Positions 1 through 40,250 are shown, numbered from the stretch's first letter. The stretch is 64,000 nucleotides of DNA from an uncultured Oscillospiraceae bacterium (GCA_964485815.1 CAZAJX010000003.1:12040-76039), one strand, 5' to 3'. Program-made: numbers and translations. Notes: a model not told the origin generated them from the letters alone.

Positions 1-5
1 TTTTT

Positions 6-139
6 AATGATGAATGATGAATGCGACGCGATGCAAAGCATCGCTAAATGAGGAATTTTGGTAGCTTTTTTCGCATAAGGATGCGAAAAAAGGTTTCCAG
101 CATTTCTCATTCCTCATTCCTCATTTCTCATTTCTCATT
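6..139 (+). repeat. Heptamer-armed mosaic intergenic repeat, copy R1 (full form)
   Basis: Left arm AATGATG x2 then AATGCGA. GC hairpin GCGATGC-AAA-GCATCGC, TAAATGAGGAATTTTGG, then AT hairpin TTTTTTCGCAT-AAGG-ATGCGAAAAAA. Right arm is six xxTCATT heptamers (98-139). Preceded by TTTTT at the window edge. The last heptamer contains the pyrR stop codon. Confidence 0.85.
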
Positions 140-677
140 CCAGCCCTGCGGGCTCCAAAATCGCTACTTCTGTTTTTCCGTCCAATTCTTTAACTCTTAC
201 GGCGATTTTTTCCTTGCGGGAGGTGGGTACGTTTTTACCCACGTAATCCGCACGTATAGGCAATTCTCTGTGGCCGCGGTCAATAAGTGCGGCAAGCCGT
301 ATGGCGGCAGGTCTGCCGGAGTGCATAACCGCTTCTATAGCGGCGCGCACCGTTCTGCCGGTATACAAAACGTCATCCACCAGAATAACCGTCTTTCCCT
401 CTACGGGAACGTTGAGGGTGGAGGTGCCGTGGGAATAAGGTGCGCCCGTATCGTCGCGGAAAGGGGACACGTCCAGCTCATCCACGGGAACGGCTACTCC
501 GTATGAATTTTTTATTTTCTCGGCAATGCGGGTTGCAAGGGGAAGTCCTCTGCTGCGGATACCCACAAGACACAGAGATGAGATGTCCTCGTTTTTCTCC
601 GCAATCTCGTGGCTTATACGGGTAAGAGAGCGGTCCAGCGCCTGCTCGTCCAGCAATATGGTTTTTTCTCTGTACAT
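135..677 (-). CDS. pyrR: PyrR, bifunctional pyrimidine operon regulator / uracil phosphoribosyltransferase
   Basis: Translation MYREKTILLDEQALDRSLTRISHEI...VILVDDVLYTGRTVRAA...DRGHRELPIRADYVGKNVPTS aligns along its length with the PyrR family, including the PRPP-binding motif. The ORF extends to 719, but the inferred -10 box lies at 724-729. Met at 677 has an AAAGG 9 nt upstream and matches the family N-terminus. Confidence 0.9.
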   Translation of the reverse strand: MYREKTILLDEQALDRSLTRISHEIAEKNEDISSLCLVGIRSRGLPLATRIAEKIKNSYGVAVPVDELDVSPFRDDTGAPYSHGTSTLNVPVEGKTVILVDDVLYTGRTVRAAIEAVMHSGRPAAIRLAALIDRGHRELPIRADYVGKNVPTSRKEKIAVRVKELDGKTEVAILEPAGLE

Positions 678-723
678 ATTACACGCCTTTTTGAAAAAAA
701 GATTTTTATATACCGTCATTATA

Positions 724-751
724 ATTATATTAATTTTTTAACATAAGTCAA
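724..751 (-). promoter_or_regulatory. Putative sigma-A promoter for pyrR
   Basis: The reverse complement reads TTGACT, 16 nt, TATAAT. Confidence 0.45.
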
Positions 752-792
752 CATTTTTCTTACATATTCAAAATTAATTCACACTTATTTTC

Positions 793-821
793 GTTGACAA
801 ATCGCGGTGAGTGTAATATAA
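793..821 (+). promoter_or_regulatory. Consensus sigma-A promoter for the MinD-like gene
   Basis: TTGACA (793-798), 17-nt spacer, TATAAT (816-821). The GGAAGGAG RBS is at 853-860. Confidence 0.6.
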
Positions 822-864
822 TATTATATCTATAGGTTTATGTTTAAAATGCGGAAGGAGGCGT

Positions 865-1659
865 TTGGTTTTGGGCAGATGTGTTTTTGTTACTTCCTTT
901 AAAGGCGGCGTGGGAAAAAGCTTTGTTTCCGCCAATCTTGCGGGTGCATTAACAAGTCTGGGCAAAAAGGTTCTCGTTGCGGACGGGGACTTGGGTATGC
1001 GCAGTATGGATATCCTTCTGGGCTGCGAGAGCGCCTCGCTTTTTGACATAAAGGACGTTATTGTCGGCGCTTGTCCGGTGGAAAAAGCCATTATCAAAGC
1101 AGAAAGAAAAGGCTTTCCCGATTTCATTCCCGCGCCCCAGACCTATGACGGATCCCGGCTGGACCCCGAGCGCACCCACGCACTGTTTACATATCTCAAA
1201 AGCATATACGATTACGTGCTCATAGATTCCTCGGCGGAATATTCGCCGTATTATTCTCTCCTCGCTTCCTGCGCGGATACGGCGGTCATCGTTACAGCCC
1301 ACCAGTCCACGGCAGTCCGCGCGGCGGAGAAAACGGCTTCTCTTCTGGCAAAGGAAGGATTAAAGGAGCAGTATCTCGTAATAAATATGTTCCGCAAAAA
1401 AGAAGCGGAAAAAGGCTTACTGCCCGACCCTGCGTATATTATCCTTCATTCCGCAGTTCCCCTGCTGGGAATCGTTCCCTGGGATAAAAACGTGGCTTTG
1501 GAAGCGGAAAAGGGCGGAATCGCCTTTTGCAACCCCAAGGGCAAGGCGTATCCCTTTGAGGCGGCGGCGGTCAACATCGCCTACCGTCTGTGCGGAAACG
1601 AGGTTCCCTTGTTCAAGGGAGTTTACCGCACCTTAAGAAGAAAATTTTATCTTAAATAA
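865..1659 (+). CDS. MinD/ParA-family P-loop ATPase (MinD-like, orphan)
   Basis: Deviant Walker A SFKGGVGKS, A-prime DGDLGMRSMD, Walker B YVLIDSS, and a C-terminal basic amphipathic tail RTLRRKFYLK. TTG start at 865 (or 871) after a strong RBS. No minC or minE adjacent. Confidence 0.75.
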   Translation: MVLGRCVFVTSFKGGVGKSFVSANLAGALTSLGKKVLVADGDLGMRSMDILLGCESASLFDIKDVIVGACPVEKAIIKAERKGFPDFIPAPQTYDGSRLDPERTHALFTYLKSIYDYVLIDSSAEYSPYYSLLASCADTAVIVTAHQSTAVRAAEKTASLLAKEGLKEQYLVINMFRKKEAEKGLLPDPAYIILHSAVPLLGIVPWDKNVALEAEKGGIAFCNPKGKAYPFEAAAVNIAYRLCGNEVPLFKGVYRTLRRKFYLK

Positions 1660-1687
1660 AATAAGGCAAGAAAGGACGATCATTATT

Positions 1688-2086
1688 ATGGAAATAGCAA
1701 TTATCGCCAACGATAAGAAAAAAGAGCTTATCACCGAATTCTGCATAGCTTATTGCGGAGTGCTTGCCAAGCATAATCTTTGTGCAACAGCTACGACAGG
1801 AAAATATATAAGCGAGGCTACGGGACTTAAGGTTACCCGTATGCTTGCGGGCGCTCACGGCGGAGCAGAGCAGATCGCCGCCCGTATCGCGTATAACGAG
1901 ATAGATCTGGTTATCTTCTTGCGGGATCCCAATTCGGATACCGAGTACGTAGATAATACCCTTCAGGTCATCCGTCTGTGCGATAGCCATAATATCCCCG
2001 TTGCCACCAACATCGCAACGGCGGAAGCGCTTATCCTCGCCCTCGGCAGAGGAGATCTTGACTGGAGAGAAATTCAGAGAAAATGA
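1688..2086 (+). CDS. Methylglyoxal-synthase-like (MGS fold) protein with substituted catalytic residues
   Basis: Colinear with MgsA (IIANDKKK, ATATTG, GGAEQIAA, FLRDP...IRLCD, IPVATN). However, AHD is AND, GGDQQ is GGAEQ, and PHEPD is EYVDN. The TGA stop (2084-2086) lies inside the first heptamer of repeat R2. Confidence 0.75.
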   Translation: MEIAIIANDKKKELITEFCIAYCGVLAKHNLCATATTGKYISEATGLKVTRMLAGAHGGAEQIAARIAYNEIDLVIFLRDPNSDTEYVDNTLQVIRLCDSHNIPVATNIATAEALILALGRGDLDWREIQRK

Positions 2087-2188
2087 GGAATGAGGAATGA
2101 GGAATGAGAAATTTCGGTAGCTTTTTTCGCGCAAAAACGCGAAAAAAGGTTTCCATCATTCATCATTTATCATTTATCATTTCTCATT
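2082..2188 (+). repeat. Heptamer-armed repeat, copy R2 (short form, no GC hairpin)
   Basis: AATGAGG x3 and AATGAGA, then AATTTCGGTAGC. AT hairpin TTTTTTCGCGC-AAAAA-CGCGAAAAAA, then GGTTTC. Right arm CATCATT x2, TATCATT x2, TCTCATT. Confidence 0.85.
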
Positions 2189-2208
2189 AATTTACGGAGT
2201 AAATTACT

Positions 2209-3468
2209 ATGGAACAAATAAAAAAGCCTCGCGGAACGTTGGATATTCTTCCCGAGCAGACTGCCGCTTGGCAGTATATTGAAAAAGTAATACGCAAAAA
2301 GTGTCTGGAATACGGCTTTGGGGAAATACGCTTCCCCACCTTTGAAGCAACCGAGCTTTTCTCCCGCGGTGTGGGCGATACTACCGATGTGGTTCAAAAG
2401 GAAATGTATACCTTTAAGGATAGGGACGACCGCAGTCTTTCCCTCCGTCCCGAGGGAACGGCGTGTGTTGTCCGCAGTATGCTGGAAAACGGCCTTTATG
2501 CAGGCGCAATGCCTTTGAAGCTGTATTATCTCACCAATTTCTTCCGCTATGAAAAGCCCCAGGCAGGCAGGTCCAGAGAGTTTTTCCAGTTCGGAACAGA
2601 GCTGTTCGGCTCGGAATCCCCTGCGGCAGATGCAACGGTTATCTCCCTTGCATACAGCGTGTTCAAGGAATTGGGGCTTAATAATGTGGTGCTTCACATA
2701 AATTCCGTGGGCTGTATGGGCTGCCGCCCCAAATACAGAGAGGCACTTGTTGAATATCTTGGCGGTTATACGGGTAGTCTTTGTCCCACTTGCCTTGAAA
2801 GACTTGGCAAGAACCCCCTTCGCGTGCTGGACTGCAAGTCCCCCGTTTGCTCGGGGATAGCATCCGGCGCACCCAAGACCACACAGCACCTTTGCGAGGA
2901 TTGCGAACAGCATCTTAAAGCCCTTACGGATATCCTGGATGCATCGGGAATTCCCTACGTTATAGATTCGGGTATCGTAAGAGGATTGGATTATTACACC
3001 GGCACGGTGTTTGAGTTTATAGATGAGCGTATCGGCGCCCAGTCCACGGTTTGCGGCGGCGGCAGATACGATGGTCTGGTTTCCCAGCTTGGGGGACCGC
3101 AAATGTCAGGCGTGGGATTCGGTATGGGTATTACCCGTCTTATCGCTTGCCTGGAAACGGAGAATTTGTTAAAGAGCGTGGATACCGCGCCCGATATTTA
3201 CCTCGCTCCCGCAGACAAAGAGGTGTATACAAAGGTGTTCACCCTTTGCCAGCAGCTCCGCGCTATGGGCATTAAGGCGGAAACCGACCTTTGCTCCCGC
3301 AGTATAAAGGCGCAAATGAAATATGCGGATAAAATTCACGCCCGCTTTACAGCCGTTATCGGCGGAAACGAAGCGGAAACGGGCGTAGTTACGGTTAAGA
3401 ATATGCAAGACGGAGCGCGATACGAGGTCGCACTGTCGGCGGCAGATATTGCTAACGCAATAAAATAA
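2209..3468 (+). CDS. hisS: Histidine--tRNA ligase
   Basis: Class II aaRS motifs: MYTFKDRDDRSLSLRPEGTA, FRYEKPQAGRSREFFQFG, GGGRYDGL, and a C-terminal anticodon-binding domain. 419 aa. Confidence 0.95.
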   Translation: MEQIKKPRGTLDILPEQTAAWQYIEKVIRKKCLEYGFGEIRFPTFEATELFSRGVGDTTDVVQKEMYTFKDRDDRSLSLRPEGTACVVRSMLENGLYAGAMPLKLYYLTNFFRYEKPQAGRSREFFQFGTELFGSESPAADATVISLAYSVFKELGLNNVVLHINSVGCMGCRPKYREALVEYLGGYTGSLCPTCLERLGKNPLRVLDCKSPVCSGIASGAPKTTQHLCEDCEQHLKALTDILDASGIPYVIDSGIVRGLDYYTGTVFEFIDERIGAQSTVCGGGRYDGLVSQLGGPQMSGVGFGMGITRLIACLETENLLKSVDTAPDIYLAPADKEVYTKVFTLCQQLRAMGIKAETDLCSRSIKAQMKYADKIHARFTAVIGGNEAETGVVTVKNMQDGARYEVALSAADIANAIK

Positions 3469-3644
3469 ATGAGGAATGAGGAATGCGACGCGCCGCGAAC
3501 GCGCCGCTAAATGAGGAATTTCGGAAGATTTTTGTTCGTAGAACAAAAATCAACCATCCCGGGGTTCCCCAAAAACGCTATGCGTTTTTGGGGTGGGTCA
3601 TTCATCATTTCTCATTCATCATTCCTCATTCCTCATTCCTCATT
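3468..3644 (+). repeat. Heptamer-armed repeat, copy R3 (long form with extra hairpin module)
   Basis: AATGAGG x2, then AATGCGACGCGCCGC-GAA-CGCGCCGC hairpin and TAAATGAGGAATTTCGGAAG. AT hairpin ATTTTTGTTC-GTAG-AACAAAAAT, CAACCAT, then an extra module CCCCAAAAACGC-TAT-GCGTTTTTGGGG. Right arm is six xxTCATT units (3603-3644). Sits between hisS and aspS. Confidence 0.85.
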
Positions 3645-3678
3645 CTCTACAATACTTCAAATTATCGAGAGGCAAACT

Positions 3679-11161: not shown

Positions 11162-11869
11162 ATGAGAAAGGCGCTTATACCCATAATTTTAGTACTTTCT
11201 CTCGTTTTGTGCTCCTGCAGCGTAGACGAAACGCTTATCACACCCGTAACGGACGGGTTTAAGGATATGAACGACGTTGCCTATGGCTTTACGTTAAGAA
11301 TTGAGCTTGGCGGAAAAACCTGTGTCCTGCTTGCTGACGGCGACGTTGCCATAACCGAGGACCCTCTGTGTATGACGGGAGAGATAGAAGAAACCCTTAT
11401 GGGCGATAATATCGGTGTTATGCAGGTAAGCTGGATGGACGGCGTGCTTACGACCGACGGAGCAGAGGAGGAATCCTCCTGGGAGGAACTGCGTTCCTCT
11501 CTGATATACGCTCCTCCCATCGTGTTCGATACCGAGCAGATAAGCTCTGCCGAATCCTCCTCCACCCTTGCAGGTACGCTGTACCGCCACTATATTAAGG
11601 ATAATTCCAAAAATTCTCTTCTTTATTCCCTGCTGGGCACCGCTTTACCCGAGGTTTGCGGTGTTGTAAGCGTGGTTGAGGAGGAAACGGAATTTAAAGA
11701 TATAGTGTGCGAATACACCTTTGATAAAGACGGCAACCCCGTTGGGTACGCCATATCCTTTACCGTGGTGTATCAGGATACGCCCCCTTACGTTCCCGGT
11801 GTAACCCAGAACAAGGATAAATACACCGTTGAGGTAGGAGTAGAGTTTCGGGCAAATTTTAAAAATTAA
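11162..11869 (+). CDS. Lipoprotein, unknown function
   Basis: Signal peptide with lipobox LVLCSCS. Starts 2 nt after the upstream stop. Confidence 0.7.
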   Translation: MRKALIPIILVLSLVLCSCSVDETLITPVTDGFKDMNDVAYGFTLRIELGGKTCVLLADGDVAITEDPLCMTGEIEETLMGDNIGVMQVSWMDGVLTTDGAEEESSWEELRSSLIYAPPIVFDTEQISSAESSSTLAGTLYRHYIKDNSKNSLLYSLLGTALPEVCGVVSVVEEETEFKDIVCEYTFDKDGNPVGYAISFTVVYQDTPPYVPGVTQNKDKYTVEVGVEFRANFKN

Positions 11870-12668: not shown

Positions 12669-12782
12669 AATGAGGAATGAGGAATGAGAAATTATGGTTG
12701 ATTTTTGTTCGCAGAACAAAAATCTTCCGAAATTCCTCATTTAGCATCGCAAAGCGATGCGTCGCATTACTCATTTCTCATT
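12669..12782 (-). repeat. Heptamer-armed repeat, copy R4 (full form, inverted orientation)
   Basis: The reverse complement is colinear with R3 minus the extra module. AATGAGG x2, AATGAGA, ATGGTTG, ATTTTTGTTC-GCAG-AACAAAAAT, CTTCCGAAATTCCTCATTTA, GCATCGC-AAA-GCGATGC, then xxTCATT x3. Confidence 0.85.
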
Positions 12783-15806: not shown

Positions 15807-16735
15807 AGCATCTTTTTATATTAAACCCCGTTGCGGGCAGTAAGGACCGTTCCGGCATTATTTCCGAAGCGGTTGAAAAGTTAAATCTGGAAAACAGCGA
15901 AAAATACGTTACCGTATGCGCCAAGGACGCTATACGGGAGGTGTGCGAGCAATTAAAAAACACCGATGAACACCTGCGTATTTACGCCTGCGGAGGTGAC
16001 GGCACCTTTAACGAGGTGGTTACGGGAATTATCCGTTCGGGCAGTAAAAACTGCTCCGTGGCGGTTGTCCCCACGGGAAGCGGAAACGATTTTATAAAGG
16101 CGTTTCCTCAGTATTCCCCGTCGGATTTCCGCGATCTCAAAAGGGTTTCCAAGGGAAATACTGTGCCTTTGGACGTAATTTCCGTTACGGATTCGGAAAG
16201 CGGCACAGAATACATAAGCGTAAACGTGGCGAGCGCGGGTTTTGATTCCGCGGTGGCAGACGGAATGGGCAAATACCGCCGTATTTTGGGCGGAAAAGGC
16301 TCTTACAATATGTCCTTGGTGGAGTGCTTTTTAAAGTACGAAAAATACGAATACACCGTCATTTGCGATGACGAGGACGTTTTCGGCGGTGCCCACCCCT
16401 GTATGTTTGCCCTCGCCGCCAACGGAAATTATTACGGCGGCGCATATAAAGCCGCACCTTACGCTAAGGTAAACGATGGATTGATGGATTTTGTCTGTAT
16501 CGACCGTGTTTCCCGCGCAGGGATTTTAAAGCTGGTAAACATATATAAAAAAGGCGAGCATTTTGAAAAAGCGAAGGATATCGTAACCTACCGCCGCTGC
16601 AAGAAATTGAAAATATGCTCTCCCAACCGTATCCCCTTCAACGTGGACGGAGAGATAATCTTAATGCGCGATCCCGAGCTGAGGATATTGGAAAGCGCAG
16701 TTGAGTTGGTTTTGCCTAAAGGCAATGAGAAATGA
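15803..16735 (+). CDS. Diacylglycerol/lipid kinase family protein (YegS/DagK-like)
   Basis: MKHLFILNPVAGS..., ACGGDGTFNEV, VPTGSGNDF. ATGA overlap with the tmcAL stop. The last three codons (NEK) and the TGA stop are encoded by heptamers of repeat R5. Confidence 0.8.
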   Translation: MKHLFILNPVAGSKDRSGIISEAVEKLNLENSEKYVTVCAKDAIREVCEQLKNTDEHLRIYACGGDGTFNEVVTGIIRSGSKNCSVAVVPTGSGNDFIKAFPQYSPSDFRDLKRVSKGNTVPLDVISVTDSESGTEYISVNVASAGFDSAVADGMGKYRRILGGKGSYNMSLVECFLKYEKYEYTVICDDEDVFGGAHPCMFALAANGNYYGGAYKAAPYAKVNDGLMDFVCIDRVSRAGILKLVNIYKKGEHFEKAKDIVTYRRCKKLKICSPNRIPFNVDGEIILMRDPELRILESAVELVLPKGNEK

Positions 16736-16817
16736 TAAATGATGAATGATGAATGATGGTTGATTTTTGTTCACAGAACAAAAATCTTCCGTAATTTCTC
16801 ATTCCTCATTCCTCATT
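16724..16817 (-). repeat. Heptamer-armed repeat, copy R5 (short form, inverted orientation)
   Basis: AATGAGA, AATGATA, AATGATG x3, GTTG, ATTTTTGTTC-ACAG-AACAAAAAT, CTTCCGTAATT, then TCTCATT and CCTCATT x2. Confidence 0.85.
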
Positions 16818-16850: not shown

Positions 16851-17369
16851 TTACATTAGCATCTTCAGCCATTCCGTTATTGCCGCCACAACTGCGGAAT
16901 AACCGAACACGGCGGATATTCCCACGATACCGCCAACCAGCACCAAAAGGATCACGTGCAGTATTACCGCACTTAATGCGTGTCTGCGGCGGTTTACCTT
17001 TTTGGATGCGCACGCCGTTATAATTGCGATTATAAGACCTATAACGGGGAGCGCAAACAATATCTGGTTTACAAGATATCCGCCCGTGGAAAGGACTGCG
17101 TATCTTCCCGTGGGAAGAACGTTATCGCTGTACGAGGTTTTTACCGGCGCTTGCTCCTTTTCCTCTGCGGGCGCGGGGATAGGGAACGCTTCCGTCTGCT
17201 CGGGGGCAGAGAGGGGTGCGGACTCCGCTTCCGTCAGAATTTGCGCTATACTCTCTTCCTTTTTTTCTTCCTTTACGGGGAGAATTTCGCAAAGAGTTTT
17301 TGTTCCGCAGGAGGGGCAGATCGCCACTCCTTCACGAAGTGCGTATCCGCATTGAGGGCAATATGTCAT
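16851..17369 (-). CDS. Zinc-ribbon membrane protein
   Basis: N-terminal CPQCG...CPSCG zinc ribbon, acidic/proline linker, two C-terminal TM helices. Confidence 0.7.
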   Translation of the reverse strand: MTYCPQCGYALREGVAICPSCGTKTLCEILPVKEEKKEESIAQILTEAESAPLSAPEQTEAFPIPAPAEEKEQAPVKTSYSDNVLPTGRYAVLSTGGYLVNQILFALPVIGLIIAIITACASKKVNRRRHALSAVILHVILLVLVGGIVGISAVFGYSAVVAAITEWLKMLM

Positions 17370-24409: not shown

Positions 24410-24532
24410 AATGAGGAATGAGGAATGCGACGCGCCGCGAATGCGACGCTAAATGAGGAATTTCGGAAGCTTTTTGCGAGGCAGCGCAAAAAGCCACCAT
24501 CATTCATCATTTATCATTTATCATTCATCATT
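24410..24532 (+). repeat. Heptamer-armed repeat, copy R6 (full form)
   Basis: AATGAGG x2, AATGCGACGCGCCGC-GAA-TGCGACGC, TAAATGAGGAATTTCGGAAG, CTTTTTGCG-AGGCA-GCGCAAAAAG, CCACCAT. Right arm CATCATT x2, TATCATT x2, CATCATT. Confidence 0.85.
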
Positions 24533-26007: not shown

Positions 26008-27294
26008 ATGAAAAAGCTTTTATGCGCAATTCTTGCAGTTGCTCTCGTTTCAGTTCTTTTTCTGATACCCGCAGCAGCAGAAACAAACGTTGTATCCGTT
26101 GAATTCAAGGGCGATTATATTAAGCCTCTCGCAGCAGACGATCCCGCTCAGCTTTACGACGGCACTGTGCTTTCTGATGCAGACGCAGCAGAAGGCGACT
26201 TTAACAAAGCAGGTATCTTCCTTGTTCAGAACACCAACTGCACTTCCGAAGAGCCCTCCGAATGCACCATCGTTTTCGAGCTTGATTCTCTCCAGAGCAT
26301 CGATACCGTTTACATCAACTGGTACGTATATTGTAACGCAATGATCGGTCTTCCCCAGGATAACGCGCTTATCGTAGGTACCTCCAAGGACGGCGTTTCT
26401 TTCAATGAAATCCCTTGGACTATGGAAGGCGAAGTTGACCTTACCGCTTCCTATCAGATCGAAACCGTTGTTGATCTCGGCGCTCCCGTAGACGCAAAGT
26501 ACGTTTCCGTATCCTTCTTCATGGGCCCCAACGGTCAGGGTTGGGATAAGGTTTCCTGGGAATGGATCGGCCTTACCGAGCTTGGCGCAGGCCTTAAGTC
26601 CGAACAGGGCGACAACAAGTACAATGAAGTAAGCCAGGAAGAATCCGTAGACCTCGACACTATCGAGCCTATCGTTGAAATTCCCCAGGGCGCAAGCTAC
26701 ATCAAGCACGTTCCCTTCAACAAGTCTATCGTAACCGATTCCAACACCATCATCACCGACCCCACCAACCTCGCTACATACAACGTAGCTTGGTCCGGCT
26801 GCGTACTTCTCAGACCTACCGAAACCGAAGGTCAGTACTCCGTAGTAGAAGTTTATACCGGCACCGGCGACTATGAATTCGCATTTGCAGACGTTCAGGA
26901 AGGCGATATCGCTCTCGCAGTTCACGGCGAAAGCACCGAGCCCGCAGCAAACAAGGCAGCGCTCACTGCTCTCGTTGCAGGCGACATCGTATACTTCGCA
27001 GGCTACAACTTCGCAGAACAGACTCACGAAACCGGCGCAGTAGTTTACTACGCAGTTCCCGCTGAACAGCCCGACGAACCCTCCGAAGAACCTTCTGATG
27101 AGCCCTCCGAAGAACCCTCCGAAGAGCCTTCCGAAGAGTCCGAAGAAGACACTTCCGTTCCCGCAACCAACAATTCCGATGATACTTCCGATAAGGAAGG
27201 CGGCAACACCGGTCTTATCATCGGTATCGTAGTAGCAGTAGTTGTTATTGCAGTTGTTGCAGTAGTAGTTGTTGTTGCAAAGAAAAAGAAGTAA
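26008..27294 (+). CDS. Tail-anchored surface protein B (paralogue of A)
   Basis: Same architecture as A, with roughly half of positions identical by eye. The last 50 or so residues (SEEDTSVPATNNSD...NTGLIIGIVVAV...KKKK) are nearly identical to A. Confidence 0.8.
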   Translation: MKKLLCAILAVALVSVLFLIPAAAETNVVSVEFKGDYIKPLAADDPAQLYDGTVLSDADAAEGDFNKAGIFLVQNTNCTSEEPSECTIVFELDSLQSIDTVYINWYVYCNAMIGLPQDNALIVGTSKDGVSFNEIPWTMEGEVDLTASYQIETVVDLGAPVDAKYVSVSFFMGPNGQGWDKVSWEWIGLTELGAGLKSEQGDNKYNEVSQEESVDLDTIEPIVEIPQGASYIKHVPFNKSIVTDSNTIITDPTNLATYNVAWSGCVLLRPTETEGQYSVVEVYTGTGDYEFAFADVQEGDIALAVHGESTEPAANKAALTALVAGDIVYFAGYNFAEQTHETGAVVYYAVPAEQPDEPSEEPSDEPSEEPSEEPSEESEEDTSVPATNNSDDTSDKEGGNTGLIIGIVVAVVVIAVVAVVVVVAKKKK

Positions 27295-30496: not shown

Positions 30497-30575
30497 AATG
30501 AGGAATGATAAATGATAAATGAGAAATGATGGGAGTTTTTTGCACCGCAAAAAACAAATTTGTAATTTTTAATGA
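30497..30575 (-). repeat. Heptamer-armed repeat, copy R7 (degenerate right arm)
   Basis: AATGAGG, AATGATA x2, AATGAGA, AATGATG, then the GTTTTTTGC-ACC-GCAAAAAAC hairpin and CAAATTTGTAATTTTTAATGAC. Confidence 0.75.
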
Positions 30576-32049: not shown

Positions 32050-32374
32050 GTTTTTTGCGGAGCAAAAAACCGAAATAACCGTTTTCGAAACGCAACGTCT
32101 GTAGTAGCCGTGGCTTGGAATGAGCGATGGTAAAACGCTGTAGAAAACGTTCTTTACGAGCGTGCTGTAGTAATCTACAGCTAGCGAAGTAAAGACGTTT
32201 AAAAAACGCAAATAAAAAGAAAATTCCGTAGAATTTGTTTTCTACGGAATTTTTACACTATAATATATGCTGTGGGGAGCGGGACGTCGAGGCGCCGTCC
32301 CCTACATTCGGTGCAGAACCTTACTACATATTAATCTTTTTTGCGTTTTTGCTCTACAGTGTTTTACCGAGCGA
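32050..32374 (+). repeat. Extended mosaic repeat S1
   Basis: Starts with the GTTTTTTGCGGAGCAAAAAAC hairpin shared with R7 and R9. Contains GCTGTAG-TAAT-CTACAGC and ATTCCGTAG...CTACGGAAT hairpins and a GC-rich hairpin. Ends TTTTTTGCGTTTTTGCTC...TTTTACCGAGCGACTAATC at the stop of the Gfo/Idh/MocA gene. Colinear with the reverse complement of S2. Confidence 0.8.
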
Positions 32375-33430
32375 CTAATCGAGAACTATCTCACGACCAG
32401 ACTCGGAGGAGTCATACATCGCCTGCATCATCTTAGCAGTAACAGCAACGGTATCGATATGAGAAGGAAGCTTTTCGCCGGTGTGGATACACTCGATAAA
32501 GCGGTCGATCTCTTTCTGGAAGTGAGGCTCATCCTTGTACTTGGGCTTGAAGGAGCAGAGAGAGCCGCAGGAGGTGGTGTATACGGTGAAGTCGCCGCCG
32601 TAGTTAAGACGGATACCTGCCTTGGTGCCGATGAAATCGATATAGCTTTCGCCAACGCCGATATTCTGTGCCCATGCGCCGTTGAAGGAAATGGAGGGAC
32701 CGGAGGTACGAACGAAGCCGGAAACCATATCGTCAACGTCATAAGTACCGTTAACGTCCTTGGTGTCCTCAGCCCACATGCCTTCGTATACGTAGTTGGG
32801 CATATCTACGCCCAGCTTGGAGTATGCGTTACAGGTAACGGTCTTGGGAGTGGGGTCGCCGGTGCAGTACATAACGATATCAAGATAGTGTACGCCCCAG
32901 TCGATAAGTACGCCGCCGCCGGAGATAGCCTTGGTGGTGAATGCGCCGCCCAAGCCGGGGATGGAACGGTGAGAACGGAAGCTTACGTATACGTGGTAAA
33001 CTTCGCCCAGATCGCCGCGCTGAATAAGCTCACGAACTTTATTTACAGCGGAGTTAAAGCGGTTAACAACGCCGATATTGAGAACCTTACCGGTTTCGTG
33101 CTGTGCCTTCTGCATCTCAAGCGCTTCTGCATATGTTCTTGCAGCGGGCTTTTCGCACAGAACGTGCTTGCCTGCGTGGAGAGCGTCAATAGCGATTCTG
33201 GAGTGCTCTCTGTTGGGAGTACAGATAGAAACCGCCTCGATCTCGGGATCGGCAAGAACTTCTTTGTAATCTTCAACAGCTTTACCGCAGCCGTATTTAG
33301 CTACGCAAGCTTCTGCCTTGTGAAGCAGGATATCACAGAAATAAACGATCTCTGCTTCGGGATTGTTCATATAAGAGGGGATGTGTGCGCTGTTTGCGAT
33401 AGTACCGCAGCCGATAATTGCTATTTTCAT
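32375..33430 (-). CDS. Gfo/Idh/MocA-family NAD(P)-dependent oxidoreductase 1
   Basis: MKIAIIGCGTIANSAH Rossmann motif, GKHVLCEKP motif, 351 aa. Confidence 0.85.
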   Translation of the reverse strand: MKIAIIGCGTIANSAHIPSYMNNPEAEIVYFCDILLHKAEACVAKYGCGKAVEDYKEVLADPEIEAVSICTPNREHSRIAIDALHAGKHVLCEKPAARTYAEALEMQKAQHETGKVLNIGVVNRFNSAVNKVRELIQRGDLGEVYHVYVSFRSHRSIPGLGGAFTTKAISGGGVLIDWGVHYLDIVMYCTGDPTPKTVTCNAYSKLGVDMPNYVYEGMWAEDTKDVNGTYDVDDMVSGFVRTSGPSISFNGAWAQNIGVGESYIDFIGTKAGIRLNYGGDFTVYTTSCGSLCSFKPKYKDEPHFQKEIDRFIECIHTGEKLPSHIDTVAVTAKMMQAMYDSSESGREIVLD

Positions 33431-33583: not shown

Positions 33584-35032
33584 ATGAAAAAGATTTTTGC
33601 TATTGCACTTGTAGCACTTATGCTCCTTTCCGTGCTTTGCGCTTGCAACACCGTAGATCCCGACGTTCAGCAAGGCGCCTCCGTTACGGACGCTTCCTAC
33701 GGCGAAGTTGATTTTGACGACCGCGCAAACGTAAAGGACAACCTTCCCGAGAAGGATTGGGGCGGAAAGACATATACCATTCTTCAGCGTACAGAGAACG
33801 ATTACGAATTCGGTGTTGAGGAATTGGGCTTTTCCACAGTAAAAGACCTTATCTATGAAAGAGATGCGGTTGTTGAAGAGCGTTTCAACGTAGATATAGT
33901 TTCCAAGCCTATTAACGGCGGCTGGGGCGTGCACGAGGACTTTATAGATTACGTGCGCGATACCGTGGCTACCGGCTCCGTGGATTACGATATTATCGCA
34001 GGCTACGCCGCTATTATCCCTACTCTCATTGCAGAGGGCATCTTTATCGATTGGTACGATATCCCCTACGTTGATCTTGAGAGAGAATGGTGGTCCCAGG
34101 ACCTTGTTGATGAGCTTACCATAGACGATAACCTTTATCTCCTCTCTGGTGATATTTCCCTCCTTTTCTGGGAAAGTATGCAGGGTATGTTCTTTAACAA
34201 GACTCTTGCTGAAAACGCAGGTATCGAAAACCTTTATGACGTTGTACGTGACGGCGACTGGACCTTTGATAAAATGATGGAAGTTATCCGCACCGCCAGC
34301 GTTAAGGACGATAACCCCGATACGAAGGTATACGGCTATACCTCCTGCCTTACCACTCAGGTTGACGTATATCAGGACGCATTCGATATCCCCGTAACCA
34401 CCAAGGATGCGGACGGCAGACCTTACTTCACCATTAATCAGGAAAAGACCTATACCGCACTCCAGATGGTTTACGATCTCGTTTACAGCTCCGACGAATT
34501 TTACAAAGCTGCTGACAAAACCGAAAGCATAAAGATGTTCGGCGAAAACCGCGCTCTCTTCCTTCCCACTAAGCTGGGTAACGGCAGTATTATCAATACT
34601 TACGATTGCAACTTCGGTATCCTCCCCATGCCCAAGTTTAACGAGGAGCAGGAAAACTACCACTCCACCTGTGAGGACGATTATTCTCTTATGGCAGTTC
34701 CCATAACCAGCAAGAACAACCTTGAGTTTATCGGTATGATTACCGAAGCTCTCTGCGCACAGAGCTACCGCGCAGTTGTTCCCGAATGGTACACCGTAAT
34801 TCTTCAGAACAGATACACCAAGGATGAGGATTCTATCGAAATGATCGAGATCATCCGCGAGGGTATCCTCTGTAACTTCGGTTATATCCATTCCTATGCG
34901 CTGGATTGGCCCGCACACCAGTTCAATATCTGCATAAACAACGGCTCTATCGATTTCGCATCCAACTGGCAGTCCAAGGAAGCAACCTTCAATAAAAATC
35001 TTGAAGACCTGCTGGACGCTTATTTCGATTAA
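33584..35032 (+). CDS. Extracellular solute-binding lipoprotein 1 (family-1 / LplA-like sugar SBP), orphan
   Basis: Lipobox LSVLCACN and a 482-aa size. WW/aromatic-rich SBP-like sequence. Paralogous by eye to 38307-39803. No permease or ATPase genes nearby. Confidence 0.75.
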   Translation: MKKIFAIALVALMLLSVLCACNTVDPDVQQGASVTDASYGEVDFDDRANVKDNLPEKDWGGKTYTILQRTENDYEFGVEELGFSTVKDLIYERDAVVEERFNVDIVSKPINGGWGVHEDFIDYVRDTVATGSVDYDIIAGYAAIIPTLIAEGIFIDWYDIPYVDLEREWWSQDLVDELTIDDNLYLLSGDISLLFWESMQGMFFNKTLAENAGIENLYDVVRDGDWTFDKMMEVIRTASVKDDNPDTKVYGYTSCLTTQVDVYQDAFDIPVTTKDADGRPYFTINQEKTYTALQMVYDLVYSSDEFYKAADKTESIKMFGENRALFLPTKLGNGSIINTYDCNFGILPMPKFNEEQENYHSTCEDDYSLMAVPITSKNNLEFIGMITEALCAQSYRAVVPEWYTVILQNRYTKDEDSIEMIEIIREGILCNFGYIHSYALDWPAHQFNICINNGSIDFASNWQSKEATFNKNLEDLLDAYFD

Positions 35033-35044
35033 AAATGAAACAAA

Positions 35045-35071: not shown

Positions 35072-35160
35072 AATGATAAATGATAAATGATAAATGATGA
35101 ATGATGAATGTAGGAAAGTTTTTTGCTGTACGCAAAAAACAAATTTAATGTTTTAAAAGG
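35072..35160 (-). repeat. Heptamer-armed repeat, copy R8 (degenerate right arm)
   Basis: AATGATA x3, AATGATG x2, AATGTAG, then the GTTTTTTGC-TGTAC-GCAAAAAAC hairpin and CAAATTTAATGTTTTAAAAGG. An extra hairpin GGACAG-GCGTCCTCGA-CTGTCC follows. Confidence 0.75.
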
Positions 35161-35783: not shown

Positions 35784-35828
35784 GTCCGTGTAAAATCAAA
35801 ACAAGAAGCAATGGAAAGGAAGCAGAAA

Positions 35829-36899
35829 ATGGAACAGAAAAAACTTAAAGTCGCCGTTGTAGGCGTTGGCGGCATATCCGAGGTACATATTAACGGCTAT
35901 AAAGCCTGCCCCAACGTGGAACTTTACGCTTTTTGCGATATCAACGAAAAAACTCTTAAATGGAAGGGCGAGCGCCACGGCGTAACCAGACTTTATACCG
36001 ACGAAGCCACTATGCTTGCGGAACTTCCCGAGATCGACGCGGTTTCCGTTTGCACCTGGAACTCCGCTCACGCACCCTGCACCATTATGGCGCTTAACGC
36101 AGGCAAGCACGTTCTGTGCGAAAAGCCTATGGCTATGAACACCCGGGAAGCCGAGGCTATGCTGGAAGCGGCAAAGCGCAACAATAAATTGCTTATGATC
36201 GGCTTCGTGCGCCGCTTCGGTAACGATGCGGCTGTGCTTAAGGATTTTATAGACGCAGGCGATTTCGGCGAAATTTACTACGCAAAGGCAAACTATACCC
36301 GCCGTAACGGATGCCCCGGCGGCTGGTTCGGTGAAAAAGCGCGCTCCGGCGGCGGTCCTCTTATCGACCTTGGCGTACACGTTATCGACCTTGTCCGCTA
36401 TCTGCTGGGCAATCCCAAGCCCGTTTCCGTTTACGGCGTAACCTATGATAAGCTTAAAAACCGTCCCGGCATTAAGGGAACGGTGGACTATAAGTCCGAA
36501 ACCGATGCGGCAAAGCCTGTGTTCGACGTTGAGGATATGGCAAGCGCACTCATCCGCTTCGATAACGGCACCACTCTGGCAGTTGAAGCATCCTTCAGCC
36601 TTAATATCCCCCACGATGTGGGCAAGATCGAGCTTTACGGAAGCAAGGCAGGCGCGGTGATCGACCCCGAATTAAAGATATACACCCAGCAAAACGGTTA
36701 TCTCACCAACGTAACTATGCATCAGTCTACAGCACTCAGCTTTGACGGTCTGTTCGAAAACGAGATCTCCCATTTCGTAAGATGTATTACCGAGGGTATC
36801 CCCTGCCGTAACCCTGCGGAAGACGGCGTAGAAATGATGAAGATACTGGATGCAGTATATGCATCCGCCTCCACCGGACATGAAGTGGTGATTGATTAG
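35829..36899 (+). CDS. Gfo/Idh/MocA-family NAD(P)-dependent oxidoreductase 2
   Basis: KLKVAVVGVGGISEVH and GKHVLCEKP motifs. Paralogue of gene 1, at roughly one third identity by eye. ATG at 35829 has an AAGGAAG RBS. The ORF also opens at 35811. Confidence 0.85.
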   Translation: MEQKKLKVAVVGVGGISEVHINGYKACPNVELYAFCDINEKTLKWKGERHGVTRLYTDEATMLAELPEIDAVSVCTWNSAHAPCTIMALNAGKHVLCEKPMAMNTREAEAMLEAAKRNNKLLMIGFVRRFGNDAAVLKDFIDAGDFGEIYYAKANYTRRNGCPGGWFGEKARSGGGPLIDLGVHVIDLVRYLLGNPKPVSVYGVTYDKLKNRPGIKGTVDYKSETDAAKPVFDVEDMASALIRFDNGTTLAVEASFSLNIPHDVGKIELYGSKAGAVIDPELKIYTQQNGYLTNVTMHQSTALSFDGLFENEISHFVRCITEGIPCRNPAEDGVEMMKILDAVYASASTGHEVVID

Positions 36900-37308
36900 T
36901 CGCTCGGTAAAAAACGCAGAACAAAAACGCAAAAAACACATAGTTCTGTTTAGCGCGTTCTCAAATGTAGGGCGGGTGGCTTATCCGGGGTCCCCAAAAA
37001 ATGCGGCAGCATTTTTCGGGGTGCCCCTTCCCCCCGCCGTTACTCATATTAAAAGGAAAACTTCCGTAGAAGTAAAAAAACATCTACGGAAGTTCTTTTA
37101 TTTTTATTTTGCGTTTTTTATAAATTTTCGCTTCGCTGGCTGTAGGTTACTACAGCTCCCGCTCGCGAAAATTCATTCTGCGCCATTTTACCATCGCTCA
37201 CTCCAAACCACGGCTATTACAGACATTACGTATCAAAAACAATTATTTCGGTTTTTGCTCCGCAAAAAACTTCCGAAATTTATCATTTGTCATTCCTCAT
37301 TCCTCATT
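36900..37308 (-). repeat. Extended mosaic repeat S2 with terminal heptamer arm (R9)
   Basis: The reverse complement reads AATGAGG x2, AATGACA, AATGATA, AATTTCGGAAG, GTTTTTTGCGGAGCAAAAAC, and is then colinear with S1. Anchor: CCGTGGTTTGGAGTGAGCGATGGTAAAAT versus CCGTGGCTTGGAATGAGCGATGGTAAAAC in S1. The middle GC hairpin is swapped for the CCCCAAAAAATGC...GCATTTTTCGGGG module. Confidence 0.8.
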
Positions 37309-37337: not shown

Positions 37338-37338
37338 A

Positions 37339-38187: not shown

Positions 38188-38234
38188 TGTGCGCCCACCC
38201 TTCTGTTTAAAAAATATGCGCAAGGCAACAACAT

Positions 38235-38263
38235 ATTATACAACGAACGATCAGCAAAGTCAA
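38235..38263 (-). promoter_or_regulatory. Consensus sigma-A promoter for the patatin-like gene
   Basis: The reverse complement reads TTGACT, 17 nt, TATAAT. Confidence 0.6.
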
Positions 38264-38265
38264 GA

Positions 38266-38299
38266 GGAAAAAGCCTTAACGGTTTTTCCGTTAAGGCTT
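38266..38299 (-). terminator. Intrinsic terminator of SBP2
   Basis: AAGCCTTAACGG-TTTTT-CCGTTAAGGCTT, with a T-tract on the minus strand. Confidence 0.7.
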
Positions 38300-38306
38300 C
38301 TTGGGG

Positions 38307-39803
38307 TTAATTAAATTCTACCAGAATTTCCAGAGTTTCTTCCATATCGCTTTGCGCCTTGTCAGCCACCGCCTCAAAACGGGATGCGTAGTTGGGGTCT
38401 GCGTTATACATCTGTCCGCATACTGCGCCCCAATTATATATGGCGCCGAGGTCGAACACGCGGGAATCGAAGATTATATCAAGCATTCTTCCCGATTCAT
38501 CATCGCGGGTCGCCTGAAGCTTCAGGGTTCTGTCATAGTATTCGGGGGTAACGAGCTGCTTGCTCAATGCGCCGAGAGCCTCTATTACCAAGCCCAGATC
38601 CTCGGGATTTTTAGCCGAATAGGGGATGGCGAGAGAGGATGTCTGGTGGTAGGAAACGGAATGGTAATATCTGTCCTGATCGGGGTCACCCTTGGGAATG
38701 GGAAGCATACCGAAATCGTCCTCCATTGCGCGGAAGGCGGTAAGGTTCATAAGTCCGCCCATATAGAAAAGCTCTCTGCCGTCGGTAAAGGCTTTTACTA
38801 CCGTCGCTTCGAACACGTTGGAGTATCCCTTGCCGGAAAATCTGCCGTCATCGGCGATCATAACCGTGCCTTTATCGCTGTAGAAATTGCTTATTTTTGC
38901 AAGGGCATCGTACATACCCTCGGTCTGGAAGGAGAAATAGGGGATATCGTCCGCATCCTTGGAAACTACCTTTTCCCCTGCCGCAAGGGCGTGAACGTAT
39001 ATGTTATAGGTTTCTGTGCCCAGCGCCCAAGTGTCGAATTCATCAACCGTGCCGTCACCGCTGCTGTCAAAGGTTATACCCTTGCAGATGGTAATGAAGT
39101 TGTCCATATTCCACTCGTCGTTATCAACCATTTCGTAAAAGTTGTAATCCGAGCACATTTCACTTGCCAAACGCTTGTTGAAGAAGATGAGCCAGGTGCC
39201 GTCATTATCCTGAGTGTTAATATCTCCCAGAGCAACGAAAATTCTTCCCGCAACGGAAAGATCGTTTACCGCCTGCTGGTCCCACCAAGGGTTGGAAAGG
39301 TCGATAGTATCAATAGAATTCAAATCTCTGTATACGCCGTCAAGCCACGAAGCGGCGGTGTAGGTTATGTTTTCAAACAACAGATCGTATGCGTTATCTC
39401 CCGAAAGTCCTGCCGCCATCTGGTCTACGATGATCCGGTTTAATTCCGCTTGTTCGGCGGCGGTTATGACGCCCTCAAGAACACAGTTGTATCTTTCCTC
39501 GATAACACGTCTTGCTTCTGCTTTTGCTACGTCAACTGCGGAAGCCGTGTCCTCGGAGTAATCCTCTCTCTGGATTATCTCACCGCCGAATCCCAGTATA
39601 GATCCGCTTCCGTTGGCGTTCCAGTCCCTGCAGAGAATACGGATCACACGTCCGCCAAGGTCCTTTACGGGCAGATCTGCGCCGTAGCCGCTGTCGCTTA
39701 AGTCTGCGCCGCTCTGTTCGTCTGCGGGGGTGTTGTCATTACACGAAACCAGCACACCGCACAGCAAAAGGAGAATAAGAAAAACAGATAAAGCCTTTTT
39801 CAT
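38307..39803 (-). CDS. Extracellular solute-binding lipoprotein 2 (paralogue of SBP1), orphan
   Basis: Lipobox GVLVSCN and a 498-aa size. Colinear blocks with SBP1, for example NPWWDQ versus REWWSQ and LIFFNKRLA versus GMFFNKTLA. Confidence 0.75.
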   Translation of the reverse strand: MKKALSVFLILLLLCGVLVSCNDNTPADEQSGADLSDSGYGADLPVKDLGGRVIRILCRDWNANGSGSILGFGGEIIQREDYSEDTASAVDVAKAEARRVIEERYNCVLEGVITAAEQAELNRIIVDQMAAGLSGDNAYDLLFENITYTAASWLDGVYRDLNSIDTIDLSNPWWDQQAVNDLSVAGRIFVALGDINTQDNDGTWLIFFNKRLASEMCSDYNFYEMVDNDEWNMDNFITICKGITFDSSGDGTVDEFDTWALGTETYNIYVHALAAGEKVVSKDADDIPYFSFQTEGMYDALAKISNFYSDKGTVMIADDGRFSGKGYSNVFEATVVKAFTDGRELFYMGGLMNLTAFRAMEDDFGMLPIPKGDPDQDRYYHSVSYHQTSSLAIPYSAKNPEDLGLVIEALGALSKQLVTPEYYDRTLKLQATRDDESGRMLDIIFDSRVFDLGAIYNWGAVCGQMYNADPNYASRFEAVADKAQSDMEETLEILVEFN

Positions 39804-39886
39804 TTTTATAAGCCCTCCGTATCGTTAGTGGTTATTATATATTATCATATTTTCCGTTTCAAGTCAATAAAGAGTAAGCACCATGG

Positions 39887-40250
39887 AAATGAGGAATGAT
39901 AAATGAGGAATGATGGAAAGTTTTTGGTCAGCAGACCAAAAACATCATATTTTCTCAAACTCACCAAACTACCGTAGAAGAAGGTAAAACTCACGGTTTT
40001 CGATACGTAAAATAGGAGAAGGTAGGACGCCGGGTATTTAGCGCAGAAAACGATTTTTAGGCGTGTGGGGCTGTACAAAGGTACTGCCCACCGACTAAAA
40101 ACGTTTAAAAACGCGAATAAAAAAGGAATTCGTGTTTTCACGAATTCCTACATTAATAGTGCCTCAAACAAATGTCAGCGAAAACAGTGACGGTTTTGCG
40201 GTACATCTTCTTTTAACTTTTTTCGCGTTTTGTTCTGCGGTAAATAACCA
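39887..40250 (+). repeat. Heptamer arm R10 fused to extended mosaic repeat S3
   Basis: AATGAGG, AATGATA, AATGAGG, AATGATG, then the GTTTTTGGTC-AGC-AGACCAAAAAC hairpin. It is then colinear in outline with S1: CGGTTTTCGATACG, ACGTTTAAAAACGCGAATAAAAAAGGAATTCGTG...CACGAATTCC, and TTTTTTCGCGTTTTGTTCTGCGGTAAA. More diverged than S1 versus S2. Confidence 0.65.

Follow-up and report, generated by a model that had tools for sequence, protein, structure and literature searches.

Heptamer-armed foldback elements at gene ends in an uncultured Clostridia lineage and their possible kinship with PF05635 insertion cassettes

Introduction

Short hairpin-forming repeats built on the heptamer AATGAKR stand between the genes of a 64,000-nucleotide stretch of DNA from an uncultured Oscillospiraceae bacterium (GCA_964485815.1 CAZAJX010000003.1:12040-76039; the whole stretch is called the window here), and they raise the question of what kind of element they are and how they came to lie where they do. 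Heptanucleotide repeats were found decades ago in cyanobacteria and their origin and function have stayed unexplained; the window offers a clean and unusually dense example from Clostridia. An original prediction, made from the sequence alone, had described eleven intergenic loci of a single architecture—an arm of tandem heptamers, a core of interchangeable hairpin modules and an inverted arm—and had recognised in them no named family. The reading preferred here, which is argued by analogy and held at about even odds (roughly 0.5), is that the short loci are copies without an open reading frame (ORF) of a heptamer-armed foldback insertion cassette, the other form of which, found elsewhere, brackets genes of the PF05635 four-helix-bundle family. 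The elements lie at gene 3' ends, donate stop codons, are gained and lost between relatives, are inverted in place, exchange modules and change the number of heptamers in their arms.

Architecture of the repeat family

The AATGAKR dimer (AATGAKRAATGAKR) matches 43 times on the two strands of the whole window against 0.03 expected from dinucleotide shuffles, every match falling within 6-39915 and none past 40.3 kb, and period-7 arrays are reported independently at the same places by Tandem Repeats Finder, so that the predicted repeat family is real. There are 16 AATGAKR arrays of 2-6 units, all of them intergenic or overlapping a stop codon only, as befits intergenic heptanucleotide repeats. 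Sequence reading, regular-expression mapping and folding agree on six complete foldbacks, in each of which small hairpin modules stand between an AATGAKR arm and an inverted one (El1 to El6, at 6-139, 2082-2188, 3468-3644, 12669-12782, 16724-16817 and 24410-24532). Each of the six folds as a single long hairpin with its arms paired, at a minimum free energy of -34 to -78 kcal/mol and a z-score of -4 to -9 against dinucleotide shuffles, the stem-forming inverted ends being built of tandem heptamers as in the cassettes described below. The claim of one architecture for all eleven loci holds for these six; the loci at 30497-30575 and 35072-35160 have one arm and one hairpin each, that at 32050-32374 has no heptamer arm at all, and the three long loci belong to a different repeat of about 300 nucleotides (nt), which relatives carry without any AATGAKR arm.

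The core modules numbered 1 to 4 in the original prediction, together with its linker, were all located by reading of the loci and by mapping with regular expressions, and the modular, mosaic composition in both orientations is borne out by the loci and their relatives. Module 1, AATGCGACGC-hairpin-GCTA, is present at four loci (20-51, 3482-3514, 12737-12768 on the minus strand and 24424-24456). The linker AATTWYGGWWG with its T-run matches eight times against 0 expected, and a motif of 17-24 nt comprising arm, linker and T-run is common to eight loci, again against 0 expected. A hairpin of the form T5-6/stem/A5-6 is found in all eleven loci, at 66-91, 2122-2147, 3529-3549, 12702-12722, 16764-16784 and 24471-24492 in the complete foldbacks and at 30536-30554, 32051-32069, 35119-35139, 37252-37269 and 39921-39942 in the other five. 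Module 4, CCCCAAAAACGC-N3-GCGTTTTTGGGG, occurs three times, twice within the range first described (3567-3593, 36992-37021) and once beyond it (41769-41798).

The arms are less uniform than was thought. That heptamers vary only at positions 6 and 7, and that the two arms are imperfectly complementary, had been proposed; the mismatch is there, but inner units are degenerate (AATGCGA, AATTTCG, AATGACA, AATGTAG) and the mismatch is systematic rather than random, amounting to one G.A or U.C in each heptamer. Four of the six complete foldbacks have paired heptamers of six base pairs and one such mismatch. A protein-recognised iteron, for which the original prediction had left room, is a candidate only. 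The heptamer adjoining the linker AATTTCGGAAG is always AATGAGR (the G-type arm), and that adjoining GGTTGA or GGTTTC is always AATGATG (the T-type arm).

Database searches give the family no name. The sole match at gathering score to Rfam 15 in the window is a tRNA, and in E-value mode the element matches score far below the gathering score of every family; blastn with El3 and with the ~300-nt repeat found no match in PLSDB plasmids, and the exact heptamer strings led in the literature to irrelevant eukaryotic papers only. The window contains no transposase, as had been stated.

Placement at gene ends

Elements are placed at gene 3' ends or directly past gene terminators, and seven loci begin immediately past the T-run of the neighbouring gene's own intrinsic terminator. 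The contact can extend to the stop codon itself: the TGA that ends pyrR (135-719, minus strand) is the TGA of the outermost heptamer of El1, and the mgsA stop (2084-2086) is that of the first heptamer of El2. El2 and El3 sit between mgsA, hisS and aspS, 20-45 nt from the following start codon, the hisS ATG lying 20 nt past the end of El2. Because these three genes have between them neither a promoter-like site nor room for one, the sole strong promoter nearby being at 794-822 upstream of minD, El2 and El3 are most likely co-transcribed within the operon. The absence of elements from 42-64 kb, already noted in the original prediction, is confirmed and is explained by tight gene packing, since ORFs follow one another there on one strand, no more than about 75 nt apart.

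Gain, loss and rearrangement among relatives

Sequences were fetched for comparison from genome, metagenome, viral or plasmid collections and are given L-numbers here; four syntenic loci were compared with the window site by site (L129, L130, L131 and L132, with HisRS identities of 95, 88, 87 and 82%, respectively). Presence or absence in close relatives and target-site duplications had been named as informative features, and the outcome was divided: gain and loss, inversion and module exchange were seen, and a target-site duplication was found by sequence reading at none of the eleven loci. L129 carries an element at each of the three shared sites; the cores are reverse-complemented relative to the window, modules have been added or swapped, and the outermost heptamer, in which mgsA stops, is the same, a pattern that would be the expected product of recombination between inverted arms. 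L130 has an element at hisS-aspS alone of these sites and another one elsewhere in its locus; the 21 kb of L131 contain none, its mgsA-hisS spacer measuring 38 nt; and L132 retains a decayed copy only. The coding sequence is touched as well. The hisS stop of L130 is the TGA of the first heptamer, and the HisRS of L129 is three residues longer, with a C-terminal NDE encoded by heptamers (L129 11245-11269, corresponding to window 3457-3475). The same extension occurs in several database HisRS clusters of 422-423 residues and represents a small protein-level consequence of the element.

Other inserts occupy the same spacers. In L132, a frameshifted IS200/RAYT-like gene (11333-11813; fragments YFVTVCT…, MPNCVHI… and YYDHIIRNQEDF…) lies in the hisS-aspS spacer, where the window and its closer relatives have the heptamer foldback. 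The mgsA-hisS spacer of L130 (9840-10000) carries a different insert with GGGGCGATTCACGAATCGCCC and GGGGACCCC motifs and no heptamer foldback, and one site has therefore received different small elements in different lineages.

Over 15 short-read assemblies made from the source population have contigs that end in the arms, with differing numbers of heptamers, as is typical of a dispersed repeat with many copies and slippage; array copy number thus varies between relatives and samples, as in other heptanucleotide repeats, and the elements break short-read assemblies of the host organism at every copy. Scanned with the arm-plus-linker motif, metagenomes yielded 17 stretches. The family proper accounts for three of them (L590, L591 and L599), whose arms mix AATGAGR with AACGAGR, AACGATG and AACGCGG; two (L585 and L592) come from a lineage of 38% guanine plus cytosine (G+C) with AATGATA arms and a AATTATGGTTG linker; the remainder are chance matches, and a copy with a coding insert was absent from all 17.

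Heptamer arrays in other genomes

In a collection of species-representative genomes, three tandem AATGAKR units occur in at least 120 stretches from many phyla. Such abundance was at first sight suggestive of a special unit, but permuted control heptamers are about as frequent in the viral collection (at least 119, at least 88 and at least 120 stretches against at least 120 for AATGAKR; the control AGAATKR is a register shift of AATGRAG and hence not independent), so that presence in many taxa is uninformative and the argument was dropped. Polarity-biased foldback architecture, unlike mere taxon presence, is informative. Among the matches listed, an inverted partner lies no more than 400 nt away from about one array in five, the partners in bacterial genomes being convergent in 27 cases and divergent in 3, and the cores are unrelated to those of the window.

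Association of heptamer arrays with four-helix-bundle genes

The evidence that points beyond the window comes from a gene family. In a Bacteroidia sequence (L117), large inverted AATGATG/AATGGTG/AATGATT arrays bracket an ORF of 121 residues that matches TIGR02436, 'four helix bundle protein' (1.2e-28), and heptamers likewise bracket a four-helix-bundle gene in L028 (Verrucomicrobiota), L465 and L526. To remove selection bias, PF05635 genes were sampled by tblastn in PLSDB plasmids, giving ten hits from six phyla. Tandem heptamer arrays lie on both sides of all ten genes, mostly within 60 nt of the gene ends, and are clearly inverted in nine. Five further cases have flanking heptamer arrays too, and over the whole set the arrays are mostly inverted. 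The unit differs from host to host: ATTAGTG in Bernardetia, ACTGGTC in Euhalothece, AAGTAAA in Anabaena, AATTAGG/AATGAGG/AATGAGA in Monoglobus pectinilyticus (Clostridia), GAAAGNG in Treponema, CAATTCG in Nostoc punctiforme, AACAGTN in Chondrinema, AATCCCC/AATCGTA in Planktothrix, GATGAAG in Chlorohelix and ATTTTAG in Gloeocapsa. Three of these (AACAGTN, ACTGGTC and AATCCCC) resemble what are presumably the STRR units of the cyanobacteria Calothrix and Nostoc. Two controls speak for the specificity of the association: 50 kb of N. punctiforme pNPUN02, with 49 genes, contain no period-7 arrays but the two that enclose the PF05635 gene, and 50 kb of Monoglobus hold two period-7 arrays, one of them at the PF05635 gene.

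Cassettes of this kind also stand inside operons (L605, Anabaena cylindrica pANACY.01; L606, Monoglobus; L609, L611 and L612), at cas2|cas1, hsdS|hsdR, RND adaptor|permease, helicase|methylase and DUF1156|HEPN junctions; accB|XCC0516 is a further operon with such an insertion. A '23S rRNA IVP' has been found to be statistically associated with CRISPR adaptation modules (PMC10910872), and cassette insertion in operons could explain this association without a functional link. In one viral contig (L526, around 900-2450), the gaps between consecutive genes, an SSB-like and a four-helix-bundle gene among them, all carry one punctuation, an (AACGTAG)x4 array and then a GGGGCGG-loop-CCGCCC hairpin, and an inverted array closes the run. 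A search of viral contigs for relatives of a four-helix-bundle gene gave the seed locus alone.

Published data provide independent support. In a table of Xanthomonas repeats (PMC4692102), one GGGAATC array of four units stands 6 nt from bccP and runs over the XCC0516 start codon, and the repeats are not connected there with a four-helix-bundle gene; the XCC0516 protein is the PF05635 structure PDB 2GSC. Three published accounts of heptamer repeats, PMC4679880 and PMC4692102 among them, make no mention of four-helix or intervening-sequence proteins. The 23S rRNA intervening sequence of Coxiella carries a PF05635-family protein and has 2-3 tandem GACAGAT units at its 5' end, strain-variable in number, at the first of which RNase III cuts (PMC4990558).

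The window has a member of the same family, a four-helix-bundle gene at 41225-41566 on the minus strand (TIGR02436/PF05635, 2.6e-20), which the original prediction missed; heptamer arrays bracket its family elsewhere.

A possible course of events

The cassette reading suggests how such elements might spread and persist. Once inserted, they would be co-transcribed with the flanking genes, and the arms would pair into a long imperfect stem that may serve as a processing or 3'-end structure, most probably as an RNase III substrate comparable to the Coxiella intervening sequence. Stem processing of this sort would make insertion inside operons tolerable or harmless. Arm length would then change by replication slippage, and recombination between the common heptamer arms would invert cores and exchange modules. 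A four-helix-bundle protein acting in trans at the first insertion is a candidate only.

A broader proposal, offered tentatively and with more doubt than confidence, is that inverted heptamer arrays form the ends of a single, pan-bacterial system of selfish cassettes. The system's coding form would carry PF05635, the Avd/23S intervening-sequence family; its ORF-less form would include the STRRs, the Xanthomonas GGGAATC pairs, the TAACTGA arrays and the AATGAKR foldbacks; and the protein would be the trans-acting recogniser of arms with 7-nt periodicity. If true, the proposal would explain the heptanucleotide excess in prokaryotes and the origin of rRNA intervening sequences, and it would reduce the 'association' of the protein with CRISPR adaptation and restriction operons to simple cassette insertion. 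Should the association between arrays and PF05635 genes hold genome-wide, scattered observations would join as one mobile cassette and an abundant 'four helix bundle protein' family would gain a candidate role.

Weighing the explanations

Several observations weigh against reading the short loci as cassettes. No PF05635 ORF lies inside or adjoining any AATGAKR element of the window, so that these can only be ORF-less relatives of the cassette; a PF05635 gene is present in 2 of 120 AATGAKR-selected genome loci, among the matches listed; the four-helix-bundle gene of the window is flanked by different repeats, not by AATGAKR; and no sequence homology of cores was demonstrated between window elements and cassettes. 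The arms carry one non-wobble mismatch per heptamer, and antisense and sense folds are about equally stable, without consistent difference, which gives no pointer specifically to selection at the RNA level. The AACGAKR arms of relatives contain neither TGA nor ATG, and TGA/ATG content is therefore not essential; the same arms weaken the candidate explanation that three-frame TGA stops are the selected function. Among the relatives, no clean empty site with both flanks alignable was found, the flanks being too diverged or synteny broken, and neither an insertion mechanism nor a target-site duplication came to light. The link between window elements and cassettes is drawn from architecture, polarity, the abutment on or replacement of the upstream stop and the heptamers common to the window and the Clostridia cassette, and it would make the short loci kin of the cassettes by structure. 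No rival explains the arms, the common linkers and the comparative pattern as well as the cassette reading does.

If the elements were of REP/BIME type, their hairpin modules would be palindromes moved and re-assorted by a RAYT encoded elsewhere and the heptamers would be incidental, which suits the mosaic composition, the two orientations, the GTAG or GCAG in several hairpin loops (repeatedly so in the ~300-nt repeat) and the broken IS200/RAYT-like gene that L132 has in its hisS-aspS spacer, the site of a window element. This is nonetheless unlikely, for tblastn revealed no RAYT-like sequence in the window or in element-carrying relatives, L132 with its RAYT remnant holds no intact element, and the tetranucleotides are in loops and not at the 5' foot of a palindrome, the feet being T-runs or AATGCGACGC; moreover, the conserved parts that define the family are heptamer arms and linkers, and REPs have neither. 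The family might instead be a classical miniature inverted-repeat transposable element (MITE), whose DDE transposase, encoded elsewhere, would bind the heptamer arrays as subterminal sites; such an element would likewise be small, intergenic and high in copy number, with inverted arms and a presence that differs among relatives. It would be expected to have terminal inverted repeats and a target-site duplication, and the arms of 2-6 units with no fixed terminal sequence, the lack of a duplication at the eleven loci, of a transposase in the window or in 80 kb of relatives and of a long copy with coding insert in the arm-plus-linker scan make it a distinctly unlikely candidate. The elements could also be regulatory rather than mobile, as functional RNAs or as rows of heptamer sites for an RNA- or DNA-binding protein (one of the cold-shock, S1 or CsrA type, or the four-helix-bundle protein itself), which would govern the translation or stability of neighbouring genes and be kept by selection and not spread; the regular unit spacing, the conserved AATGA core with two variable positions, the GGA and GAGG motifs (a GAGG stands 8 nt before the next ATG) and similar published proposals for TAACTGA arrays (PMC4679880) fit such a role. 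As with REP/BIME elements, this seems unlikely: several copies lie past intrinsic terminators, where little transcript is expected, AATGATA units have no GGA, the neighbouring genes share no functional theme, and close relatives lack elements at the same housekeeping genes with nothing else changed.

The two remaining explanations dispense with both movement and binding. Local polymerase slippage at AAT-rich stop or terminator contexts, next to ordinary gene-end hairpins, would make the likeness among loci convergent. Heptamer simple-sequence repeats are indeed common everywhere, the permuted controls are about as frequent, array length varies between samples, and many AATGAKR arrays in other phyla are single and adjoin start or stop codons. 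Slippage would, however, hardly place a 17-24-nt common motif and multi-part cores at eight loci, repeat the same complex modules at different sites in both orientations, make orthologous sites differ by whole modules instead of slippage steps, or orient partners with the bias of 27 to 3 seen among the matches listed, and as a full account it is very unlikely. Bidirectional intrinsic terminators would account for the gene-end placement and the G+C-containing stems flanked by T- and A-runs, yet whichever strand is read, a T-run leads into the stem and an A-run leaves it, so that the runs pair and leave no 3' U-tail. A terminator scan of 1-19 kb calls no element hairpin except a weak minus-strand match in El3 (3574-3557), while it does call a separate gene terminator just upstream of El4, and the essential genes that lie downstream of El2 and El3 in their operon lack promoters of their own. 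On the scan and the order of the runs, terminator identity was rejected as scarcely credible.

Individual elements

El1 (6-139; minimum free energy -52.8, z -7.0) begins with an arm of two AATGATG units (6-19), followed by the GC hairpin of module 1 (20-51), AATGAGG with the linker AATTTTGGTAGC (47-65), the T6-stem-A6 hairpin (66-91) and an inverted arm of five heptamers (105-139). El2 (2082-2188; -42.8, z -9.2), in the mgsA-hisS spacer, has a G-type arm of four heptamers (2082-2109), the linker AATTTCGGTAGC (2110-2121), its hairpin (2122-2147), GGTTTC and a T-type inverted arm of five heptamers (2154-2188). El3 (3468-3644; -77.8, z -8.1), in the hisS-aspS spacer, joins a two-heptamer arm to module 1 (3482-3514), the linker (3517-3528), hairpin 3 (3529-3549), module 4 (3567-3593) and an inverted arm of six heptamers (3603-3644). 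El4 (12669-12782; -50.2, z -9.3) starts directly past the thiT intrinsic terminator (…CGGGAGTTTTTT|AATGAGG), and its core is reversed relative to that of El3, running from linker B through hairpin 3 (12702-12722) and linker A (12723-12734, minus strand) to module 1 (12737-12768, minus strand). El5 (16724-16817; -33.9, z -7.0) consists of a T-type arm of five heptamers, GTTGA, hairpin 3 (16764-16784), linker A (16785-16796, minus strand) and a G-type arm of three heptamers, its right end adjoining the terminator T-run of the minus-strand gene 16851-17369. El6 (24410-24532; -43.9, z -4.3) has a G-type arm of two heptamers, module 1 (24424-24456), linker A (24459-24470), a hairpin (24471-24492) and a T-type inverted arm of five heptamers (24498-24532).

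Half-elements make up the rest. On the plus strand, 30497-30554 has a five-heptamer arm and a T6-GCA-CC-GCA-A6 hairpin, with neither inverted arm nor long fold, and starts directly past the terminator of a DUF1667 gene (…CCACGGATTTTTT|AATGAGG); 35072-35139, also plus, has a five-heptamer arm and a hairpin (35119-35139) without an inverted arm and starts directly past the terminator of gene 33584-35032. On the minus strand, 37252-37308 comprises two AATGAGG units (37295-37308), degenerate heptamers with linker A (37270-37294) and a hairpin (37252-37269), and adjoins the terminator of a patatin gene; 39888-39942, on the plus strand, has a four-heptamer arm (39888-39915) and a hairpin (39921-39942). 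The last two are fused to the ~300-nt repeat.

Other repeats and the host

The ~300-nt repeat, which the three long loci share and which is distinct from the AATGAKR foldbacks, has its first copy at 32051-32374 (plus strand), downstream of a GFO/IDH/MocA gene (32375-33430, minus strand); this copy opens with a T6-stem-A6 hairpin. The second, inverted copy (36900-37251, minus strand) lies downstream of a paralogous GFO/IDH/MocA gene (35811-36899, plus strand) and holds module 4 (36992-37021), and a third, more diverged copy (39943-40250, plus strand) lies downstream of the YitT gene (40255-41151, minus strand). Two of the three copies are those fused to half-elements. Relatives have one to three copies of the unit downstream of orthologous GFO/IDH/MocA genes and no AATGAKR array (L582 3690-4500, L583 1-165 and L584 8340-8795), and in one relative the repeat is duplicated tandemly or invertedly. 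It contains CTGTAG-rich hairpins, a central bidirectional terminator-like hairpin and TTTTGCGTTTTTGTTCTGC ends, and matches no Rfam family. An identity of the long loci as TnpB/IscB guide-RNA regions was ruled out, since their neighbours are GFO/IDH/MocA oxidoreductases and the YitT membrane protein, not TnpB.

The four-helix-bundle gene of the window is preceded by a different array (41585-41815) of inverted 23-26-nt GNRA-hairpin units, and the same arrangement precedes the orthologous gene in a Firmicute of 39% G+C (L123). Over 41567-41815, three direct units are succeeded by two to three inverted ones, all of the form ATCAA-stem-GNRA-stem-TTGTATATC, whose stems differ from unit to unit while complementarity is kept, followed by the module 4 copy at 41769-41798, with long-range pairing between ATCAAGCCGCAGGG and CCCCGCTGCGGCTTGGAT. 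A tRNA gene (41857-41930, minus strand, 77.7 bits) adjoins this repeat-rich region, and in L123 the orthologous gene also adjoins a tRNA cluster. Over 3000 relatives of the protein are found in databases; the best 120 all show 81-96% identity and come nearly all from contigs below 3 kb, which suggests a multi-copy, fast-diversifying and assembly-breaking gene. Unrelated to the heptamers are two in-frame tandem repeats inside coding regions, one of 15 nt in about six copies (23047-23139) and one of 12/36 nt in about five (27071-27157).

The genes of the window are Firmicutes-like (PyrR, MinD, methylglyoxal synthase, HisRS, AspRS, ECF ThiT and YitT), and named HisRS relatives, at about 63% identity, are metagenome-assembled genomes labelled 'Clostridia bacterium'; the host is an uncultured Clostridia lineage. 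A MITE of the Porphyromonas 'BrickBuilt' type, which a G+C content of 48% and a 23-nt tandem repeat had brought to mind, is ruled out by this affiliation.

Comparison with known systems

Among long simple-sequence repeats, heptanucleotides rank first in abundance in most prokaryotic genomes (Mrazek 2007, as cited in PMC4679880). The closest precedent in arrangement is Xanthomonas, in which GGGAATC forms 70-75 convergent inverted pairs per genome, about 28 nt from the upstream ORF, mostly transcribed and differing in length between species; Nostoc has heptamer arrays of GGGGAYT (Rehm et al. 2015, PMC4692102). Like those of the window, the Xanthomonas repeats are tandem intergenic heptamers in convergent opposite-strand pairs, nearer to the upstream than to the downstream ORF, with array length varying between related species, and six window loci have such convergent close arrays near the 3' end of the upstream ORF. 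The Xanthomonas/Nostoc unit is, however, G-rich and G-quadruplex-forming and belongs to another phylum than AATGAKR; no modular hairpin cores or linkers have been described for these pairs, whereas window elements have both, and the systematic mismatch of the window arms is not shared by the Xanthomonas pairs.

TAACTGA arrays are known from Beggiatoaceae, Cyanobacteria and Bacteroidetes (MacGregor 2015, PMC4679880), and three heptanucleotide repeats have been reported in Calothrix. STRR and TAACTGA arrays share with the window family their intergenic tandem heptamers, a sporadic phylogenetic spread, the adjacency to start and stop codons, and stop codons on the forward strand with an open reverse strand (PMC4679880). 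They are mostly described as direct repeats, and not in Clostridia, whereas the window family consists of foldbacks with cores. The 23S intervening sequences of Coxiella and Leptospira (PMC4990558) resemble the window elements in being inserts bounded by complementary stem-forming ends and selfish insertions tolerated within a transcribed unit; they differ in lying in rRNA helices rather than between protein genes and in carrying an S23p/PF05635 ORF, where window elements carry small hairpins only. RNase III processing is demonstrated for the Coxiella intervening sequence and proposed for the window elements.

REP/BIME, BOX, RUP and Correia elements are similarly small, intergenic, hairpin-forming and high in copy number, with interchangeable modules, both orientations and strain variability, but they have no tandem-heptamer arms and no sequence or Rfam similarity to the window family; REPs are imperfect palindromes of 20-40 bp with a conserved GTAG or CGTC at the 5' foot, a tetranucleotide position that the window elements do not match, and neither a RAYT/transposase partner nor a target-site duplication was found. 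The Foldback (FB) transposons of eukaryotes have long inverted termini of tandem short repeats in variable number around a variable middle, coding or not, and are much larger than the window elements; the likeness is one of architecture only and implies no homology. The original prediction recognised no named family, and Rfam has none that matches, but the kind has precedent in the published heptamer repeats: tandem and convergent inverted heptamers are already known, and the AATGAKR foldbacks add another form to them.

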